Part shown: positions 2,472 to 16,129 of the stretch, piece after piece
How positions within the stretch are numbered: the first letter of the stretch is position 1
How the letters are laid out: each line of letters opens with the position of its first letter
From: Bacteroidaceae bacterium
GTDB taxonomy: Bacteria; Bacillota; Clostridia; Oscillospirales; Acutalibacteraceae
Assembly (NCBI GenBank): GCA_963589785.1
Contig: CAVAMJ010000013.1
Coordinates: 8-64,007, forward strand
DNA length: 64,000 nucleotides
Reading direction: 5' to 3'
Translations under genes and position numbers: made by a program
The notes under the pieces: model-generated
Database searches by the model: none
Seen by the model: only the letters and a program-made list of their open reading frames with translations
What the model was told of the DNA's origin: nothing

Positions 2472-3647
2472 ATGAAAATTACTAAAGTCGAAGTAATCAG
2501 AGCCAACAGATCCGTATTTATAAAAATCCATACAGATGAAGGGATTGCGGGAATTGGTGAAAGCGGTGCATGGGGACTGTTAGAAGCCTCGGCAAAAGAG
2601 CTAGAATTGTTTGGCGAATATCTAGTGGGAAAGGATCCATTGATGATTGAATATCATTGGCAGTACTTATTCCGATTCAGTCACTTCAGAGGAGCTGCGG
2701 TTATGGGTGCATTGTCAGCAATGGATGAAGCTCTTTATGATATTGCAGGAAAATTCTACGGAATACCTGTATATCAGCTGTTGGGCGGCAAATGCAGAAA
2801 CAAAGTCAGAGTGTATAACCATACAGCCGGCAGAACAGAAGAGGAACTCGTTGAAAATGCAATAAAGGGAAAAGAGCAAGGCTTTACCGCACTGGGACAT
2901 TTAAATCCTTATCTGGATGAGCCGAGAAATCAGCCATTTGCAGATAACAATACATCTCTTTTGTACAAAGCAGAGAGACGAATCGCCAAGGTAAGGGAAG
3001 CAGTAGGCGAGGACATAGATCTTTGCCTTGAGTTACACCGAAGACTTGAGCCGGGACTTGCAGTGCAGTTAAGTTCCAAATTAGAAAAATATAATCCGAT
3101 GTTTTTAGAAGATCCGATAAGACCGGATAATTTTGACGAGATGGCAAGAGTTGCAGAAAAGTCTAAAATCCCGATCGCAACAGGGGAAAGAATCAACAGT
3201 TACTATGAGTTTGAAATGCTTCTGGAAAGAGGCGCTTGCAGTTATGTAAGAGCAAGCATTGGAGTATGTGGCGGATTTACAGGAATCAAAAAGATTGCTG
3301 CAATCGCAGAAGCACATCACGTCAGTCTCGTACCGCACAATCCATTAAGTCCTGTAACTACGAACGCTGTGCTTCAGGCAGCAGCTGCAATTGATAACAT
3401 TGCTATATGCGAATATCCGAATCTCCATGCAGCTTCTACCGCAGATAATTTGACCGGAAGCGGCTTTAAACTCAGACAGTCAGACATGGTAGATGAAATA
3501 GCTGAGTTCAAAGACGGATATCTGATAGTTCCGGATTAACCAGGTATCGGAATCAATTTGATTGAAGACTTAGAAGAAAAATTCCCATTTAGACCTCATG
3601 TTGTATGCACAAGATTAAATATTGATGGATCTATATGTGATCAATAA
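2472..3647 (+). pseudogene. D-galactonate dehydratase (DgoD)-like enolase-superfamily dehydratase interrupted by an in-frame TAA
   Basis: MKITKVEVIRANRSVFIKIHTDEGIAGIGE... is collinear with DgoD. The reading frame hits TAA at 3537..3539 and continues in the same frame as PGIGINLIEDLEEKF... to TAA at 3645..3647. DgoD has ..TKPGLGVEIDE.. at this position. Confidence 0.75.
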
Positions 3648-6700: not shown

Positions 6701-8596
6701 ATGGCAAGATTTGAAATAGGAACGCCTGTTGAAGTTGTTTCTTCTGGGCAAATAGGCACAGTAATAAACAAGCTTAGAAAAAGTGTTGTTGTTGAATTTT
6801 TCGATAAATCGAGTGTTGTTCCGGAGGTCCGGAAGTTTAATTATCATGAACTTATGCCGGTTGAATTACCGCAAATAAGGACATCTCAGCTTGGTCCATT
6901 TGTCCGAGGGGAGATTTCTTTAACAGAGCTTTCAAATGGAGTGCACCTTATAGCCAAATATGTCAAAATCGACTCGAAGCCGTATAAAGTTACAGCCGAA
7001 GACATCCTTATAGGTATCAAACATTATGAAGGAATGACAGATGATGATATATTTCGGTGGCTTGATATCATTATGCAGTTTGGTGATGATATGTCATTTC
7101 CGTCTAACTCATGGACAGATATTCAGGATGAAGTTACAGAAAAAGATTTTCTCAGTTATGTTTATGATGAATTGAATGATATTCATTGGGAACTATGTAT
7201 CGGAAGACCCGAAGAAATTGTTCAAGAGTATATAAAGAATGTTAGTGAACAGCTTGAAAAATGGGTTGACTCCGATGGAAAAGAGTATCCGGAAGAAATA
7301 CGACAAATGATAGCGGCACAATATGACTGTGATGATATAGATAGACAGTCTGAGGCTACCCAAAAGCTTTTTAAAGAATGCCTTGATTATTGCTGTGATG
7401 TCAAAAAAGACCCTAAAGCCATTCAGCGAAGAGGATATTGTTATTATTGCGGAACTAAAACCTATCCAAACGATTGGCACAAAGCAAAGGACGCTTTTCT
7501 TGACTACTACCAAATGACAGGTGATGCATCCGCAGCAAATACTCTTGGATATATTTATTATTATGGAAGATGCAATGGCGGTGTACCGGAATATGAAGAA
7601 GCTTTTAAATATTTCAGTATAGGTCATGCCTATTCATATTATGAAAGTACATATAAGCTTGCTGATATGCTTGCTCACGGATATGGTGTAGTAAAGGACG
7701 GAAAGTCAGCCTATCATCTATATTTAGATGTTTACGCGGATAATTTAAAACATTTTATACGAGGCGATTTTGAGAGCAAATTTGCAGATGCCGCCCTTAG
7801 AATGGGAAATTGTTATAGAGACGGAACAGGAGTAGATAAGGATCTTGAATCAGCTTATTACTATTACTTACAGGCTGATTATGCAATTCGTGAAAGGACG
7901 AAAGCCGCTAATCATTACGGTGACACGGTTGTCTTTAGCGGAATTCAAAATGCCCTTACAGAGGTAAGAACAGAATACACCGAAAGAGGTCGCAGCGTAA
8001 AATTCTTCTATCCTGAATGGACAAAATGGGTTTTAATCAATCATCGAAGATGCAAGCTTGTTATAAATAAGCTTAAAGACGATGTACTGGCAATTGATGC
8101 AACTGTATTGAAGCGAAAGAATGAAGACAAAGCTCCACAGATGTTTATAACTGTTTCAAAAGCCGATTACTGTGCATTACGAAAGAAAATTCGCATTAAA
8201 ACAGCGCAGAAAAGCCGTTATGAAACCTTTAGTGAAAAATCAGAAATGATTTTTGACAGTATAGAGTTTAATCAGAAAGAATGCAAAACAAGTTTTTATC
8301 TATATGATGATCTTGTGGGAGAAATTTACACCGATTATTATACCTTTTTGGCTCCTGCAAAGAAAATAATTCCAAAGACGGGGAACTTTTATCATTTTGT
8401 TTCGGTTTGCTTTGAAGAAAGCGGTCGATGCTATGATTATCTTTGTGATGATCCATCGGTAGCAGAGGGCGATTTTGTTGTAGTAAACGGCTACGATGGG
8501 GAAAAGACAGTAAAAGTAGTGAATGTTGCAGATAAACACGAAAGTGAACTGGGACTTCCCATTGAGCGATATAAAAAGATAGTGAGAAAAATATAA
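6701..8596 (+). CDS. Sel1-like repeat protein with uncharacterised N- and C-terminal domains
   Basis: 631 aa with a GGAGG RBS. Central Sel1/TPR-like repeats (AANTLGYIYYYGRCNGGVPEYEEAFKYF; YKLADMLAHGYGVVKDGKSAYHLY; ALRMGNCYRDGTGVDKDLESAYYYY). The flanking domains are unrecognised. Confidence 0.7.
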   Translation: MARFEIGTPVEVVSSGQIGTVINKLRKSVVVEFFDKSSVVPEVRKFNYHELMPVELPQIRTSQLGPFVRGEISLTELSNGVHLIAKYVKIDSKPYKVTAEDILIGIKHYEGMTDDDIFRWLDIIMQFGDDMSFPSNSWTDIQDEVTEKDFLSYVYDELNDIHWELCIGRPEEIVQEYIKNVSEQLEKWVDSDGKEYPEEIRQMIAAQYDCDDIDRQSEATQKLFKECLDYCCDVKKDPKAIQRRGYCYYCGTKTYPNDWHKAKDAFLDYYQMTGDASAANTLGYIYYYGRCNGGVPEYEEAFKYFSIGHAYSYYESTYKLADMLAHGYGVVKDGKSAYHLYLDVYADNLKHFIRGDFESKFADAALRMGNCYRDGTGVDKDLESAYYYYLQADYAIRERTKAANHYGDTVVFSGIQNALTEVRTEYTERGRSVKFFYPEWTKWVLINHRRCKLVINKLKDDVLAIDATVLKRKNEDKAPQMFITVSKADYCALRKKIRIKTAQKSRYETFSEKSEMIFDSIEFNQKECKTSFYLYDDLVGEIYTDYYTFLAPAKKIIPKTGNFYHFVSVCFEESGRCYDYLCDDPSVAEGDFVVVNGYDGEKTVKVVNVADKHESELGLPIERYKKIVRKI

Positions 8597-10017: not shown

Positions 10018-10893
10018 CTATTCACTTTTAATTTCCGGAGCATTTACTGTGCCACTCATTGAATTATTTTTCTCGTCATAATACAAATAGACATTATAGC
10101 CTTCTTCATTATCAGCTGAATAAAATCCCTCAAAGCTACTCGGTGAGGCTGTATATCCAAGTCCTTTGCAATCCTCAACATAAGCATTAAACTGCTCCAA
10201 TGACAAACCGTAAGCATCAAACATATAGATATCTTCGTCATCTCTGCCGCTTTTTACCACCTTGACATCCGGTTTAGGAATTTTGTTGCCAAGATCTGTT
10301 TGTGACCACTGATACGCTGTCTCTGTTTCTGCTTCGGCAGAATACTTCTTTGAGCTGAAATCATAATATACAGTAAAAATTTTATCCTCATCGATATACT
10401 TAATGGTAGCAATATCAGGCTCAACTAAGTTATAGTGATTAATGTCTTTCAGATAAAAGGTGCCACCATAATAATAGCAGTTTATATTTGAAGCGGATTC
10501 ATTTGGATTCACAACTCTTTCAGTTTCGGTGTGCATTGAAATCGCTTGACTCCTAAGCTCTTCCATATCTTCTTCACTTGCTTCAAGCATTTCTTGAATA
10601 TCCGAGTAGAAATTAGCTTTTTCTTCATCGGAAATATCGCCCTTTTCTTTGAATGTGATTTCAAAATCAGTTATCGTATACTCTGTATTGTTCGTGTAAT
10701 TAAGAAGTACATAACGGTCACCGTCAACAATACCTTCATCAACGCTCCAAGAGATATCTTCTATATTAATCTTTTCTTTTTCTGCACTGCTATTTGAGAT
10801 GCCAGCTGACTCACTATTGCTGCATCCGGCAAAGCATAATGTCAAGCTAATGATTACCGCTAAAGTGGATAATACTTTTTCTTTTCTGTTCAT
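10018..10893 (-). CDS. lipoprotein, function unknown
   Basis: Signal peptide with a lipobox (LSTLAVIISLTLCFAGCSNSE). 291 aa, acidic, two-domain. Confidence 0.75.
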   Translation of the reverse strand: MNRKEKVLSTLAVIISLTLCFAGCSNSESAGISNSSAEKEKINIEDISWSVDEGIVDGDRYVLLNYTNNTEYTITDFEITFKEKGDISDEEKANFYSDIQEMLEASEEDMEELRSQAISMHTETERVVNPNESASNINCYYYGGTFYLKDINHYNLVEPDIATIKYIDEDKIFTVYYDFSSKKYSAEAETETAYQWSQTDLGNKIPKPDVKVVKSGRDDEDIYMFDAYGLSLEQFNAYVEDCKGLGYTASPSSFEGFYSADNEEGYNVYLYYDEKNNSMSGTVNAPEIKSE

Positions 10894-10927: not shown

Positions 10928-11122
10928 TTAGATTTCAACTATCTCGTAGTCCGGATCTTCATAATCATCCTCATCATAATCACCGGGATTAGACATATGT
11001 AGAATTTCCGCACCTTCACGGAAACAAGAACACATGTATAAAGCGTATTCTTCTGCATCTTCTTCTGTATTAAAGATTTCATCCTCGTACTCACCGTCAA
11101 ATAACACCTTGAATTTTGCCAT
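10928..11122 (-). CDS. very acidic 64-aa hypothetical protein
   Basis: MAKFKVLFDGEYEDEIFNTEEDAEEYALYMCSCFREGAEILHMSNPGDYDEDDYEDPDYEIVEI. GGAGG RBS. Lies 34 nt upstream of the lipoprotein gene on the same strand. Confidence 0.55.
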   Translation of the reverse strand: MAKFKVLFDGEYEDEIFNTEEDAEEYALYMCSCFREGAEILHMSNPGDYDEDDYEDPDYEIVEI

Positions 11123-11338
11123 TTTTAACCTCCATTATTACTCATAGAATATAGATGTTTTACTGCATTATGACCTTCATAGACGAATTATCCACTTGGA
11201 GCATCCTTTAAAAGCGATGTGCTCAGTTCTGCACATTAAGTCTATTGGTTATCCGGTTCATTCTTTTGTTTTTTATCTCCTTTCCCTTTGATGATTAAAG
11301 CTTAACACATACATTTTCAAATTTGGTTTTATCAATGC

Positions 11339-11383
11339 AAAACACGAGAGCTTGGACAGTAATTGTCTAAACTCTCGTGTTTT
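11339..11383 (-). terminator. rho-independent terminator immediately after the STAND-kinase gene
   Basis: 12-bp stem aaaacacgagag / ctctcgtgtttt. The stem ends in a U-run on both strands, and the hairpin lies 8 nt beyond the stop codon. Confidence 0.8.
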
Positions 11384-11390
11384 GTAAATA

Positions 11391-14300
11391 TTAAGTTGTT
11401 TTGCTTTCTATAACTTTTCGAATTTCTTCAGGAACAATAATTTTGTTTTTGAAATCAACAATTTCTTTGTTTTCAGCTTCTACAAGTTCAATCATATTTT
11501 GGCAAAATTCAAACTTCTGTGCGTCAATTCCAACCTGCCAAAGATGCTCATATAACTCTTGCCTTATACGAACATATGAATCCGAATTTACGTGTTTTGC
11601 ACAAAGTCGAGTTCCTTCATAGAGCAAGTCTATCGACTTATTATGACATTTCAGTTCAAAGTAAATATTCGCACATGGTATAATGACATCTTCAATTTTC
11701 TGCAAATCAGTCGGGATGATAATTTCTGACAGCTCTCGTGCATCTTTAATAAACTCATCCGCGCTTTCTAAACTATCAAAACACAAAGCGAAATACCAAG
11801 CACATACCAAATAATAGTGAAGACGAACATCTGCATATTGTGAGGTGTTTTCGGTGATTATCTTATTTGCTTTATCGATAAGTTTACCAATTTCTTTTTC
11901 TGTGCCTCGACAGCTTCGCATTAAAACCGTAGCCTTAGCGAGAACATTTTTTGCGTACAAATGATTGTCGTCGCAAGAAATACTTCGCTTTGAATAATGA
12001 AGAGTTTTCTCAATGGCATCAAGCATTTTATTCAGCAAAAGCTCTTCATCAGGATCTTCTGTGTCGTAATTACCATCGAGAAGAACATCATAATATTCAG
12101 AAACCATATCATAGTAGATAGCATAAGCTTCTCTTTTCTGAAACTGTTTTGCTGCTTCATTCGCCTTATCAAGCAAAGTTCTCATTGCTTCTTTGTCACC
12201 GTAAGCATCATAGATTGAAAATACAAGTTCATATATTTTCATAATAGCAACAGCATCTTGTCTTATATCATCCCTATCAATTCTTTGATTGCCAAATTCT
12301 GCTTCTTTAATAATCTCTGCAAAAAGACGACTTGTTTCAGAGAAAATGTAATCTTCTCTATACTGTGGCATATTTAACAATACAATAAACTGCAAGTTTG
12401 CAAATAGGAGTGTATCATAAATTGCTTTTTCTTGATGACATTGCTTAACAATGCTTTCCGCTTGAAAAAGCAATTTTGTCAATCTCTCAATATCAGTAGG
12501 GGACTCGTCTTTGATACGAGCTAACCGTTCACATAATACATTACCGTAAATGCTGTTATCATCTTTCTTATTAAAAGCAAGCAACTTATTTAACAACAAG
12601 TTGTCTTTCGGATTCGAGTTCAGTTTAGTATAGGCGGCGGATAAGTTTTTTCGCAGTTTCTTCGGATAGTTATTTTTGGTAGACTCCAAACGAATTTCCA
12701 CATAAAAGTATGTTAAAAACCGCTCGGCAGCTTTAAGATACTCAGGTGTCCATTCCCAACGATGTACTGTTTCACAAATTACATTGTGCATAGAAATAGT
12801 ATTTCCTGACATCATTAGCCAACCGTCAATAATCAATTCATTCAAATCGTCCTTAGACGCAAGCTTCATAATTTTCTGAAAGCAATTGATATCTAGCCCG
12901 TCATCTCCGAGAAGTGACGCAACTTTCATCAAGATTTTCTTTTCCATAGAAAGCTTATTAGCTACAAAAATGGCATCAATAATGTTTCCGATGGTATCAT
13001 TTGTTTGCTTGCTGTCTTTTTCAAAGTTCACTTTTTCAGGGGCAATACGGGAAAAGCCATGCTCAGCTGTTAAAAATGCCGCACTCGTTATAGTAAGGTA
13101 GCTGTTAGCAATCTGTTTTGCAATAAGTTCGAGAACCAGTGTATGTCCTTCTACACGCTTCAAAATATGCTCAAATCCGTCTTGTTCATTATCCTCAATA
13201 GAACGGCCAAGATTTGCTTCAAAGATACAGCGTAGTGCATTCTTATCTGAAATTGCAAAAAGCTTCATTTCTTGACAATTCTGATAAGTGGGAGTCTTAC
13301 GGCTTAAAAGAATAACCTTTAGTTCCGTAGAGAGAAGCGCATGTAAATCATCATCAAATTCTCCGTCAAAATTATCGATTACTAAAACAGATGAAGTTCC
13401 TCTAACTATTTCTCGTATTTTGGCTAACTTCTTATCAAAATATCTTGTTCTGTTGTTGATTTCTTCGTCTCGTCTTAATGTGTTAATTTCGATATTACTG
13501 TCATTAGATATGGTTGCCTCAATGCTATCTTTGTAATAAACATATAATATTGTATCAAACCTTTCGCGGTGGCGTATCAGATATTCTCTAATAAATGAAC
13601 TTTTTCCGATACCTCCCATACCGGTAATAAAAAGACAATTGTAATCACCATTTGCCAAGAGTCTATCGAATTCTTTTAACTCATGCTCGCGACCATAGAA
13701 ATTTTTTTGCTTAGTGATATGTGTAGAATAGATTCTTGGAATCATTAAGTCAGCATATTTTTCTATCTTTTGTAATTGTCCCAAAACTTCTTGCATATTT
13801 TGGTATCTGTCAGCGTAATAAATAGCCAAAGCATTGTGAAAAAAGTCACTTAATGAACCTAAAAGTCTATCATCACACTTTTGATAGTCATAGTGAATTT
13901 TAGTGAAATCATATACAGCATCTGTTTCACAATTTGGGATAGTAGGCGGGTAACCAAACAAAAGATAAAAAAGCAAAGCGCCAATACTATAAACGTCAGT
14001 ATGTGGTCCCAATCGTTTAATTTTAGATGTTAGAAGTTCAATGGGAGCAAATCCCTTAGAATAAGAGAGTCTAAAATCATCGCAACCCAGCTTGCTTGAT
14101 TTTTGAACTTCTTTCCATTCAAGAAGCGAATCAAAGTCAAAGAGCTGAACTTGCTTTTGATATCCGTCAACAACCAACACATTGTCAGGCTTAATATCCA
14201 AATAAAGATACCCTTGCTTATGAATATTACCCAAGACATAAGCTACTTGCTTCACAAGCGTAACACATTCTTTAAGAGATTTTGGTCTATATGTTGCTAA

Positions 14301-14705
14301 TGTTTTCTTAGAAGAATAGGCTGATAGAATGTATGTTGTTCCATTCAATTTGAAAATGTCGATTTGATTTGTAACGGAAGAATAATTCGCACCGGAGTAA
14401 AACAACTGATTTGTTTTTGAAAAGTCAGAGCGCAGCTTCTCCTGCATTTGATCAAATTCAGTGGCATCAAAGCTCGATGGAATAAGTCGGTTGTTTTCAT
14501 CACGAATAATTTTGAGTTTATAAGGATAAAATTCCTTTACTCTGTAGAATGTTTTATCGCCGGTATCAGCTATTCGAGATGCCTCATACACAATGCAAGA
14601 ACCGCCTCGTCCTATTTCACTTTCAATAACACAATGCAATTTTTCGCCTCTATCATTACAAAGACAAAGTGGGGTATTCAATTCCAAAGCAATTCTATTA
14701 TCCAT
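11391..14705 (-). CDS. Ser/Thr protein kinase - NB-ARC/STAND P-loop NTPase - helical(TPR-like)-repeat protein
   Basis: Kinase motifs: GRGGSCIVYEA, FYRVKEF, YLDIKPDNVLV, LFDFDS, GFAPIE. NTPase motifs: Walker A ITGMGGIGKSS, Walker B VLVIDNFD, GHTLVLELIAKQ. About 550 aa of helical repeats follow. The ATG at 14705 has an aaggtgg RBS; an alternative GTG is at 14717. Confidence 0.85.
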   Translation of the reverse strand: MDNRIALELNTPLCLCNDRGEKLHCVIESEIGRGGSCIVYEASRIADTGDKTFYRVKEFYPYKLKIIRDENNRLIPSSFDATEFDQMQEKLRSDFSKTNQLFYSGANYSSVTNQIDIFKLNGTTYILSAYSSKKTLATYRPKSLKECVTLVKQVAYVLGNIHKQGYLYLDIKPDNVLVVDGYQKQVQLFDFDSLLEWKEVQKSSKLGCDDFRLSYSKGFAPIELLTSKIKRLGPHTDVYSIGALLFYLLFGYPPTIPNCETDAVYDFTKIHYDYQKCDDRLLGSLSDFFHNALAIYYADRYQNMQEVLGQLQKIEKYADLMIPRIYSTHITKQKNFYGREHELKEFDRLLANGDYNCLFITGMGGIGKSSFIREYLIRHRERFDTILYVYYKDSIEATISNDSNIEINTLRRDEEINNRTRYFDKKLAKIREIVRGTSSVLVIDNFDGEFDDDLHALLSTELKVILLSRKTPTYQNCQEMKLFAISDKNALRCIFEANLGRSIEDNEQDGFEHILKRVEGHTLVLELIAKQIANSYLTITSAAFLTAEHGFSRIAPEKVNFEKDSKQTNDTIGNIIDAIFVANKLSMEKKILMKVASLLGDDGLDINCFQKIMKLASKDDLNELIIDGWLMMSGNTISMHNVICETVHRWEWTPEYLKAAERFLTYFYVEIRLESTKNNYPKKLRKNLSAAYTKLNSNPKDNLLLNKLLAFNKKDDNSIYGNVLCERLARIKDESPTDIERLTKLLFQAESIVKQCHQEKAIYDTLLFANLQFIVLLNMPQYREDYIFSETSRLFAEIIKEAEFGNQRIDRDDIRQDAVAIMKIYELVFSIYDAYGDKEAMRTLLDKANEAAKQFQKREAYAIYYDMVSEYYDVLLDGNYDTEDPDEELLLNKMLDAIEKTLHYSKRSISCDDNHLYAKNVLAKATVLMRSCRGTEKEIGKLIDKANKIITENTSQYADVRLHYYLVCAWYFALCFDSLESADEFIKDARELSEIIIPTDLQKIEDVIIPCANIYFELKCHNKSIDLLYEGTRLCAKHVNSDSYVRIRQELYEHLWQVGIDAQKFEFCQNMIELVEAENKEIVDFKNKIIVPEEIRKVIESKTT

Positions 14706-14782
14706 TATATTACCCACCTTTTCTTCATGATAACTTAATTATATCCTGTGTCATCTAATACCCGGTTTTACCGTTACAAGAA

Positions 14783-16006
14783 TCAATCATCATACTCTTT
14801 TTCCTTTACGGCAAATACTTCACTCATATATGTTCTAAAAGCTATGAGCGGATGTTCATCGTTCAATGCCCACATAAATAGCCAATCATACGGATTGCCT
14901 ACATATAGCTCCGGATACCCCGCATCCAAAAGACGGGCATTTATCATATCCAAACATCTTTCAGAATCAGATAATTTTGCGGAGTAAAAGGCATTGTTAT
15001 TACTGATAATAAGTTTTGACCAATAGGTATAGAAAGCGAGAAATATTAGCATCTTTCTAATAATTTCATCGTTACCAACCAAATCTCCTCGAATGAGCTT
15101 GTCGATATTTTGCCTGTTCGGAAAACAATAATCAGCTTTTAGCGGCATTAACTTGTTTCCGGATAGTATAGAAGTCAATGAACGGTCATGCTTTTTTGCA
15201 TACATATTCTTTTGGTAATTATCTAAACCGATTATCTGAGAAAAAATAACCCATGTTGAGGCATCTGAATTTGCTACTACATAATTATCCGACTTTGCAT
15301 TTTTGTCACTATTATACGTCCTGTTTATAATAAAGCCTTCTTTTTCTGCCAAACCATTGGAACGGGAAATTTTAGTCCAAAATTCTTGAATATATTTGAT
15401 AGCAGTAACATTATTATATTTAAAACTGTCGATGTTATCTTTGATATATTCTATCAAAGACGCTTTGTCGGTAATATTATCAATATTATCTTTTACTTTT
15501 CCTGTACAAAGGACATCTGCGCATTCGGAAATAGATTTTATTTTTGTGGGAATGGTAATACAATCAATTATATCTTGTGTTTCTTGGTATGAAAGTCCAT
15601 TTCTTATGCAGAAGTAATAAACAGCCTCATTTATTGTATGGCAATCAAAACTACGTTCAAACTGAACACATCTGAAAAAGTCATTCGTTTCATTGACGTC
15701 TAAGTTAAATGCAAAGCAGATTTGAAATGCTGTCTTACGAGCTATCTTTTTATTCGGCACAAACCACTCCTTAAAATCACGAGGCAGTTTAACATTAGCT
15801 GTCTTGAACTTTTCACGAAGAAAATGAGCCTTTTCTGACACATCAGCTAAATCGCCTTTGTATCCATGCTCTTTCATAAATGAGGTTAACGCCTCATCAA
15901 ATCCGCGAAATAGGGAAGCTACTTGAGCCAAATTTTCTTCGTACCCGTCTTCATCCATTAACAATGTTTCTGCTTTGAGGTTGAGCAATTCTGTATATTG
16001 AGACAT
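14783..16006 (-). CDS. hypothetical protein (407 aa), first gene of the STAND-kinase unit; weak XRE-like HTH signature
   Basis: Long uninterrupted ORF on the same strand, 65-78 nt upstream of the kinase gene. No catalytic motif recognised. The segment KEWFVPNKKIARKTAFQICFAFNLDVNETNDFF resembles the C-terminal half of an XRE-type HTH. Confidence 0.6.
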   Translation of the reverse strand: MSQYTELLNLKAETLLMDEDGYEENLAQVASLFRGFDEALTSFMKEHGYKGDLADVSEKAHFLREKFKTANVKLPRDFKEWFVPNKKIARKTAFQICFAFNLDVNETNDFFRCVQFERSFDCHTINEAVYYFCIRNGLSYQETQDIIDCITIPTKIKSISECADVLCTGKVKDNIDNITDKASLIEYIKDNIDSFKYNNVTAIKYIQEFWTKISRSNGLAEKEGFIINRTYNSDKNAKSDNYVVANSDASTWVIFSQIIGLDNYQKNMYAKKHDRSLTSILSGNKLMPLKADYCFPNRQNIDKLIRGDLVGNDEIIRKMLIFLAFYTYWSKLIISNNNAFYSAKLSDSERCLDMINARLLDAGYPELYVGNPYDWLFMWALNDEHPLIAFRTYMSEVFAVKEKEYDD

Positions 16007-16038
16007 ATTCTTTTAATTCCTTTAAATTTACTTGTATT

Positions 16039-16092
16039 TTAAGCAATAGTTGCGAGAGTCTTTTATTGCTAACCGTTAACTCTAAGCAATAT
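16039..16092. repeat. three copies of a TAAGCAATA-like motif (one inverted) in the 5' leader of the 407-aa gene
   Basis: TAAGCAATA occurs at 16040..16048 and 16083..16091. The near-perfect inverted copy TATTGCTAA is at 16064..16072. Confidence 0.5.
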
Positions 16093-16100
16093 TCAAACTT

Positions 16101-16129
16101 ATTGTATCACGAATAATTACTTATTCCAA
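16101..16129 (-). promoter_or_regulatory. sigma-A type promoter (extended -10) for the 407-aa gene / STAND-kinase unit
   Basis: The minus strand reads TTGGAA, a 17-nt spacer, then (TGa)TACAAT. It lies about 95 nt upstream of the ATG at 16006. Confidence 0.6.

Follow-up and report, generated by a model that had tools for sequence, protein, structure and literature searches.

A kinase–NB-ARC–solenoid protein and its conserved 407-residue partner: a candidate NLR-like two-gene module of gut and rumen Firmicutes

PknK of Mycobacterium tuberculosis, a protein of about 1,100 amino acids (aa) with MalT-like helical repeats, is the characterised protein whose architecture comes closest to the one described here. 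It is soluble, joins a Hanks kinase to a C-terminal STAND (signal transduction ATPases with numerous domains) region, and phosphorylates VirS, a transcription factor encoded next door (PMC4601284). In the Avs (Avs1-5, Avs7-21) and bNACHT proteins, an N-terminal enzymatic domain is likewise followed by a STAND NTPase and by a C-terminal sensor resembling tetratricopeptide repeats (TPR), and the literature lists the protein kinase among the effector domains found with NACHT/NLR (nucleotide-binding, leucine-rich repeat) and STAND modules. Here, we describe two neighbouring genes on the minus strand of a stretch of 64,000 nucleotides (nt), hereafter the window, of contig CAVAMJ010000013.1 (positions 8 to 64,007; GenBank assembly GCA_963589785.1, deposited as Bacteroidaceae bacterium and placed by GTDB in the Acutalibacteraceae). 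One encodes a kinase–NB-ARC–solenoid protein, hereafter the large protein, and the other a 407-aa protein which, judging from its conserved adjacency, is the obligate partner of the large protein. Our best reading of the pair is that of a horizontally mobile two-component NLR-like module. The two genes are:

14783-16006, minus strand: partner gene, an open reading frame (ORF) for an all-alpha protein of 407 aa, of no recognised family or fold
11391-14705, minus strand: large gene, 1104 aa counted from the ATG at 14705 (full ORF 11391-14717)

Like PknK, with which it has been compared by description only, the large protein carries an N-terminal Hanks kinase followed by a STAND region, and each is proposed to phosphorylate a protein encoded nearby. 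The target of PknK is the AraC regulator VirS, whereas the partner has no recognised fold; the pair is also unlike PknK in being mobile and patchily distributed in gut Firmicutes, and its kinase is non-RD (without the Arg-Asp pair) with DFD. With the Avs and bNACHT proteins, the large protein has in common the three-part layout, and the pair has in common a sensor that evolves fastest and a patchy distribution with horizontal transfer, but a kinase would provide the output, in place of a nuclease, NADase or protease, and the second gene is obligatory. A Hanks-type Ser/Thr kinase is also the active module of Stk2 of staphylococci, PD-T4-6, Mad6 and PglW, all of which are without the NB-ARC module and without a homologue of the partner. 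In plants and animals, Prf/Pto and NOD2/RIPK2 couple an NLR-type switch to a Ser/Thr kinase, and the non-RD catalytic loop is a feature of innate immune receptor kinases and of the large protein alike; here, however, the kinase is fused to the NLR, and any likeness is one of functional analogy only.

Searches of collections of named systems gave partial matches. With residues 331-1104 of the large protein, no Avs1-5 or bNACHT model of PADLOC-DB v2.0.0 was matched, and the sole match was to the first 110 profile positions of PDC-S27 (1.6e-9), at the P-loop end. PD-T4-6 (1.1e-18) and mad6 (1.6e-16) were matched by the kinase domain and by nothing else in the protein, and the NCBIfam scores were far under the cut-offs (33 bits against 460 for MAD6 and 17 against 990 for PglW), so that membership of PD-T4-6, of MADS Mad6 or of BREX PglW was rejected. 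A literature search found no paper describing the pair; a 2026 survey of 589 STAND clades (PMC13581612) may contain its clade. By these comparisons the pair falls outside the named defence and signalling systems, in agreement with the preliminary description of this locus, which had regarded it as undescribed. Kinase-STAND fusions are already known; the novelty lies in an obligate partner whose fold is unrecognised, in an element conserved in the spacer that separates the genes, and in the association with genes for envelope proteins of the DUF6591 type.

The pairing was counted over 86 loci: a scan of one genome per species (185,579 species) returned 142 matching stretches, from which 80 loci were kept, and six metagenomic loci were added. 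A homologue of the large gene lies directly downstream of the partner gene, on the same strand, in 85 of these loci; at the single unpaired locus merely 363 nt of contig remain. The gap between the genes is 14-130 nt overall, usually 67-130 nt; the few larger ones arose secondarily, by insertion of IS256-like or YhgA-like transposase genes (IS, insertion sequence). In three loci, transposase genes sit precisely in the spacer with both genes still in place (L017, 11508-12764; L046, 11241-12266; L042, 11231-11629). Remote relatives of the partner, at 25-34% identity, again adjoin a giant Pkinase protein that keeps its Walker A motif, and in two distant loci the genes are divergently oriented with their adjacency kept. 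The conserved coupling of the 407-aa ORF to a STAND kinase, which the preliminary description had asked a survey of neighbourhoods to establish, is thus found both in the counted loci and in distant relatives.

The two proteins also diverge together: for every domain of the large protein, divergence is correlated with that of the partner (Spearman 0.76-0.79). At 30-40% identity of the partner, the bits kept per residue are 0.73 for the kinase, 0.67 for the partner, 0.54 for the nucleotide-binding oligomerisation domain (NOD) and 0.15 for the solenoid, which diverges about five times faster than kinase or partner. Hypervariable repeats combined with a conserved output module are what one would expect if a receptor followed changing ligands with its sensor. 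Since the partner is conserved like the kinase while the solenoid is hypervariable, it would stand on the conserved signalling side and not on the sensing side, which argues against an earlier suggestion that it could be a co-sensor. Fusion of the partner to the kinase protein was never encountered.

The large protein is divided as follows (pLDDT, predicted local distance difference test):

13746-14705, minus strand: residues 1-320, non-RD Hanks Ser/Thr kinase domain (GRGGS loop, K57, YLDIKPDN, DFD, GFAPIE, R300)
12756-13700, minus strand: residues 336-650, STAND module of NB-ARC/AP-ATPase type (Walker A, Walker B VLVID, GHTL, winged helix with MH motif)
11394-12746, minus strand: residues 654-1104, TPR-like alpha-solenoid, a putative sensor (helices only, pLDDT mostly 85-97)

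Its start is most probably the ATG at 14705, because the ribosome-binding site (RBS) AAGGTGGG is found at 14720-14713 on the minus strand, 8 nt ahead of this codon, and because the homologue P0121, which is 98% identical, is likewise 1104 aa long. With this start the spacer, previously given as 65-78 nt, would be 77 nt long. In Pfam, the large protein matched Pkinase (E 8.6e-15, 55.3 bits; curated cut-off 31.7), AAA_16 (E 2.7e-8, 34.9 bits; cut-off 32.6) and NB-ARC (E 2.9e-6, 27.2 bits; cut-off 23.5), and its last ~550 residues had no Pfam match; of the families anticipated for this protein, those of the kinase and of the NTPase were therefore found and the TPR clan was not. All the motifs quoted beforehand are present, with the Walker A motif GMGGIGKS (G362-S369) at nt 13622-13599, as claimed. 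An alignment of 28 homologues at 53-76% identity shows K57, D170, K172, N175, D190 (of DFD) and R300 of the kinase to be invariant, and the glycine loop, the Y-L-D170-x-K172-P-x-N175 loop and GFAPIE to be invariant or nearly so. Also invariant are, in the NOD, K368 of Walker A, D444 of Walker B, H521 of GHTL (GLPL-like) and M639-H640 of the MHD-like motif. Kinase motifs are kept as well in the far more remote large proteins of distant loci, and in every member examined the catalytic loop is non-RD (YLD or HLD). In the kinase of the large protein, DFD replaces DFG. The invariance or near-invariance of the catalytic motifs in the 28 homologues leads us to predict an active kinase.

Thus, the N-terminal region contains the glycine-rich loop, beta3 Lys, D-x-K-x-x-N, DFG-type site, APE motif and subdomain XI Arg of a Hanks-type Ser/Thr kinase, and the region following it contains the Walker A and B motifs, the helical domain with a GLPL-like motif and the winged helix with an MHD-like motif of a STAND NTPase of the AP-ATPase/NB-ARC clade. 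An AlphaFold2 model (pLDDT 80.6) resolves the kinase (1-320), the nucleotide-binding domain (340-480), the helical and winged-helix domains (to ~650) and an alpha-solenoid (654-1104). When this model was compared with the Protein Data Bank (PDB) by Foldseek, the top match was a STAND-TPR protein of Pyrococcus (6mfv, 5e-11), followed by plant NLR resistosomes, CED-4, Apaf-1 and Hanks kinases; the nearest solved kinase by sequence is PpkA (1.7e-13). The kinase, NB-ARC/STAND and helical-repeat architecture first read from the letters of the sequence is borne out by Pfam, the invariant motifs, the AlphaFold2 model and Foldseek taken together.

The partner had been called an orphan, a description that does not survive database searches: 488 relatives were found by a word-indexed search, and an exhaustive profile search returned 1,208 clusters (at 50% identity) at E <= 1e-3, 246 of them at E <= 1e-30. 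On this evidence the family of the partner is large, with at least 1,200 clusters at 50% identity, and without annotation: nearly all its members are about 400-450 aa long, and none bears a name. The protein had no match in Pfam, NCBIfam, PADLOC or PHROGs, the family profile matched nothing among the sequences of the PDB, and a naming search seeded from a distant relative gave no identification. Its AlphaFold2 model is well defined (pLDDT 88; predicted template-modelling score, pTM, 0.88) and consists of 22 helices; Foldseek found no significant match to it in the PDB (best E 0.13, template-modelling score below 0.2) or in BFVD. Most close relatives have 431 aa, and the window copy is shorter by an internal variable loop; an N-terminal extension of 24 aa in the homologues, considered as the source of the difference, was rejected. 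At residues 232-245 of the partner (window 15272-15313), most homologues have a charged, Ser/Thr-containing loop of 25-35 residues which is lacking in the window copy, and which may be a disordered regulatory or phosphorylation loop.

Among 114 relatives, the most distant at ~24% identity, the polar residues that are conserved best are D374 (114/114), T168 (112/114; in a coil), R317 (112/114) and K318 (109/114), followed by N371, R118 and E127. The sequence R118-x4-H123 made the partner a candidate HEPN RNase; this was rejected, as the His is kept in 88 of the 114 relatives and the Arg there in 22, and no Pfam HEPN family at E <= 1 was matched by the window protein, nor any fold in the PDB. 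A fainter signal lies at residues ~75-115 (or to ~120), which resemble, in consistent register, the C-terminal helices of the helix-turn-helix (HTH) of Cro/C1 type. Pfam HTH_3 matches 3 of the 114 relatives (best E 0.0011), and a home-made XRE profile aligns to the family in consistent register but weakly, at E values of only 0.3-10. The output of hhalign against XRE-HTH was uninformative or artefactual and lent no support, and Foldseek found no DNA-binding fold for the model in the PDB or BFVD. The HTH signal is not significant, and we treat this sequence likeness as a lead.

Signals that may govern expression of the pair are found between and around the genes:

14706-14782, minus strand: spacer between the genes, 77 nt (AAAACC at 14769-14764, 20 nt, TATAAT at 14743-14738, RBS AAGGTGGG at 14720-14713)
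16101-16129, minus strand: promoter-like site upstream of the partner gene, TTGGAA-17-TACAAT with TG (9/12 match)
11338-11384, minus strand: hairpin resembling an intrinsic terminator, 3' of the large gene (-28.1 kcal/mol, z = -9.0)

The spacer is the better conserved flank of the partner gene, with a column identity of 71% among relatives against 37% upstream of that gene. Its AAAACC-N20-TATAAT element, ~40 nt ahead of the ATG of the large gene, is present in 12 of 12 loci in which the partner is >= 58% identical to that of the window (L001, L007-L013, L015, L016, L039 and L098), with an identical distance between the two parts in all 12, in 5 of 11 loci at 49-57% identity and in 3 of about 50 at lower identity. 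A search for RNA folds conserved in the spacer among the relatives found none. Because this conserved element precedes the large gene, the latter probably has its own promoter, which, having no sigma-70 -35 box, may be activator-dependent. The pair had been presented as a bicistronic unit served by a single promoter at 16101-16129. The adjacency stands, and the sole promoter has become doubtful in view of the promoter-like element in the spacer: the 16101-16129 site matches at 9 of 12 positions, promoter-like sites across the region are as many as expected by chance, and the sequence upstream of the partner gene is not conserved, so that this site, if it is a promoter at all, would be a local one. 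The strong hairpin reported after the stop codon of the large gene was recovered (0 of 200 shuffles fold as well); its U-run is short (UUUUG) and lies partly inside the stem. The pair had also looked richer in AT than the core genes. Its GC (guanine plus cytosine) content is marginally lower than that of the window (0.348 against 0.372, the 8th percentile), but GC at third codon positions is 0.30-0.32, at the window mean of 0.317; the pair does not really stand out in composition, and a foreign base composition is unsupported.

Downstream of the large gene, on the same strand, lie two genes which we regard as facultative companions of the pair:

10928-11122, minus strand: very acidic ORF of 64 aa, found downstream of the pair in 6 other loci
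10018-10893, minus strand: DUF6591 lipoprotein of 291 aa (Pfam DUF6591, 7.9e-15)

An acidic ORF of 64-69 aa ahead of a DUF6591 gene is found in one subclade. In Coprococcus catus the corresponding position is taken by a 67-aa gene, and the four-gene set (the pair, the acidic ORF and the DUF6591 gene) occurs there at a different chromosomal site; sets of three or four genes recur at differing chromosomal sites more generally. Genes for lipoproteins or zinc-ribbon membrane proteins, joined into one group by phmmer, lie near the pair in 35 of 79 loci, with 32 copies downstream and 7 upstream; 31 of the 32 downstream copies are on the same strand as the pair, and ten genes of the group are within 29-178 nt of the large gene. 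DUF6591 was recognised in 15 of the 39 proteins of the group, and this is the conservative figure, as single linkage may over-join the group (two flavodoxins were pulled in). Genes of the DUF6591 type may add an optional third component to the pair, or be a target of its regulation. One ORF, P0218 (1061 aa), is chimeric, with the first ~920 residues of a large protein joined to the C-terminal half of a DUF6591 lipoprotein (72% identity over 142 aa). A deletion or a fault of assembly is its probable origin, and the ORF confirms that the large gene and the DUF6591 gene are adjacent on the same strand. No paper mentioning "DUF6591" was found in a literature search.

The pair is rare and patchy, occurring in gut and rumen lineages of the Lachnospiraceae, Oscillospiraceae/Ruminococcaceae and Erysipelotrichaceae and in a few bins labelled Coriobacteriia, Selenomonadaceae, Chloroflexi or Bacteroidaceae; the distribution is drawn from metagenome bins, and some taxon labels may be wrong. 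In four bins labelled Bacteroides, Bacteroidaceae or Alloprevotella (L008, L018, L056 and L076), the copies are 55-69% identical to those of Clostridia, and represent either mis-binned short contigs or recent inter-phylum transfer. The chromosomal sites of the pair are unrelated from one locus to another: it adjoins nusB-tsaD-xseA in the window and in metagenome-assembled genomes (MAGs) of the same species, lies between EcsC/DUF4230 and ThrE genes in Coprococcus catus, and is found elsewhere among phosphotransferase system and amylase genes or in an element with TnpV, NERD, MobA/MobL and IS21. Further neighbours are serine recombinases and methyltransferases. Four loci from IMG/VR have serine integrases, invertases and methyltransferases, and no phage structural genes among their best matches.

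Neighbouring defence genes were sought with PADLOC in 260 proteins from about 47 loci. The scan identified Gabija (GajA 2e-144, GajB 3e-181), type I restriction-modification, PDC-S41 and PDC-S01 (five proteins), and a known or candidate defence gene lies within 5 kb in roughly a fifth of these loci, a figure that is suggestive but a rough estimate and not a formal defence score. A NERD-domain gene is directly downstream of the pair in 6 loci. An ATPase with AAA_14 and DUF4143 domains stands beside the pair in L099, with similar ATPases in L012, L030 and L037; we suspect it to be the PDC-S01 match, the scan having given no list of the matching members. Elsewhere in the window, the plus strand encodes at 6701-8596 a 631-aa protein with weak Sel1-repeat matches, conserved in MAGs of the same species, and at 2472-3539 and 5293-6045 gene fragments of the enolase superfamily (MR/MLE), which look like what had been taken for a pseudogene island.

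From these observations a sequence of events can be proposed. The solenoid would bind a ligand, ligand binding would drive nucleotide exchange in the NB-ARC module and oligomerisation, and oligomerisation would gather the kinase domains and so switch the kinase on. The kinase would then phosphorylate its dedicated partner, with Thr168, near-invariant and situated in a coil, as the candidate residue, and might also act on further proteins of the cell. Because it is conserved like the kinase and never fused to it, the partner is read as a downstream signalling or effector component, a substrate or a stoichiometric regulator, and not as a sensor. The outcome might be growth arrest or remodelling of the cell surface, comparable to the kinase defences Stk2 and PD-T4-6.

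As to the purpose of such a response, we think it likeliest, with a confidence that falls somewhat short of even, that the pair acts in conflicts with phages or mobile elements. The reasons are that the large protein is built in three parts like an NLR and has a hypervariable sensor, that the pair is spread patchily and horizontally and has neighbours from mobile elements and defence systems, and that other defences are already known to rely on kinases. Several observations weigh against such a role. The commonest Pfam family among the neighbours is DUF6591, that is, envelope lipoproteins and not typical defence genes; many loci sit amid ordinary metabolic or housekeeping genes; and matches to PD-T4-6 and mad6 among the neighbours, probably housekeeping PrkC-like kinases, inflate the estimate of defence neighbours. 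Copies in IMG/VR number only four, and the pair is absent from the 50,697 phage and 72,556 plasmid records searched. The pair shows no toxin-like domain, and the partner, whose function is not recognisable from its sequence or model, is only a candidate substrate. Characterised defence STANDs are usually single genes, and PknK illustrates how a kinase-STAND architecture may serve ordinary signalling. A resemblance to PknK, which the preliminary description had set against its own proposal of a sensing or defence module, remains the main rival, and one that we hold to be possible if rather unlikely: the large protein would sense an intracellular metabolite or an envelope-stress cue and phosphorylate the partner, a regulator that possibly binds DNA, and the two would control nearby genes, above all the lipoprotein and membrane-protein genes of the DUF6591 type downstream, and perhaps the promoter of the large gene itself. 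PknK itself phosphorylates the adjacently encoded VirS (PMC4601284), and adaptive signalling of this kind would suit the lipoprotein and zinc-ribbon genes found in 35 of 79 loci, mostly downstream and on the same strand, the recurrence of three- or four-gene sets at differing chromosomal sites, the AAAACC-N20-TATAAT element, whose want of a sigma-70 -35 box suggests dependence on an activator, and the faint HTH likeness at residues ~75-120 of the partner (HTH_3 in 3 of 114 relatives, XRE at E 0.3-10). The HTH signal, however, is not significant and gains no support from hhalign or Foldseek, a lipoprotein gene of this kind is missing from half of the loci, those of the window lie beyond a strong terminator that follows the pair, and a patchy horizontal distribution with a hypervariable sensor suits conflict systems better than housekeeping.

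The lipoprotein genes could also be drawn into an NLR-like phosphorylation relay, which would not kill the cell directly: the partner, phosphorylated once the receptor has oligomerised, would be the real output and would, for example, switch lipoproteins of the DUF6591 type on or off, remodelling the envelope against phages or competitors; we consider this improbable. More improbable yet is an arrangement akin to toxin and antitoxin, the large protein being a latent toxin and the partner its stoichiometric inhibitor or a guarded protein, whose loss, modification or sequestration, for example by a phage protein, would free the kinase and cause growth arrest. In typical antitoxin-toxin and HipB-HipA operons the antitoxin gene comes first, as the partner gene does here; the strict co-occurrence and co-evolution of the two proteins point the same way, a separate promoter-like element for the large gene would allow their ratio to be regulated, and the IS insertions between the genes of three loci have removed neither gene. 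Yet a highly conserved, well-folded protein of 407 aa is an atypical antitoxin, and a STAND switch with its own sensor already provides autoinhibition; moreover, some assemblies (L086) have a frameshifted partner beside an apparently present kinase gene, which a strong toxin would not tolerate. That the genes are accidental neighbours with unrelated functions can be dismissed for practical purposes, being refuted by adjacency in 85 of 86 loci, in several phyla-level groups, in divergent orientation and down to 25% identity.

Characterised bacterial NLR-like and STAND proteins act through nucleases, NADases, proteases or pores. A kinase-NLR that is widespread, has intact catalytic motifs and is always accompanied by a conserved partner of unrecognised fold would add phosphorylation signalling to that repertoire, and the many "hypothetical" proteins of gut and rumen Firmicutes that make up the large family of the partner would gain a role. 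The pair would also offer a simple two-gene system in which to ask how oligomerisation of an NLR activates a kinase, a question that bears on Prf/Pto, NOD2/RIPK2 and PknK. Were the partner the true output of a phosphorylation relay, the pair would parallel, in prokaryotes, the cascades of NLR, kinase and substrate known from plants and animals, and would involve a new protein fold; and should adaptive signalling in the manner of PknK prove to be its function, the pair would represent a new envelope-signalling pathway in abundant gut commensals.

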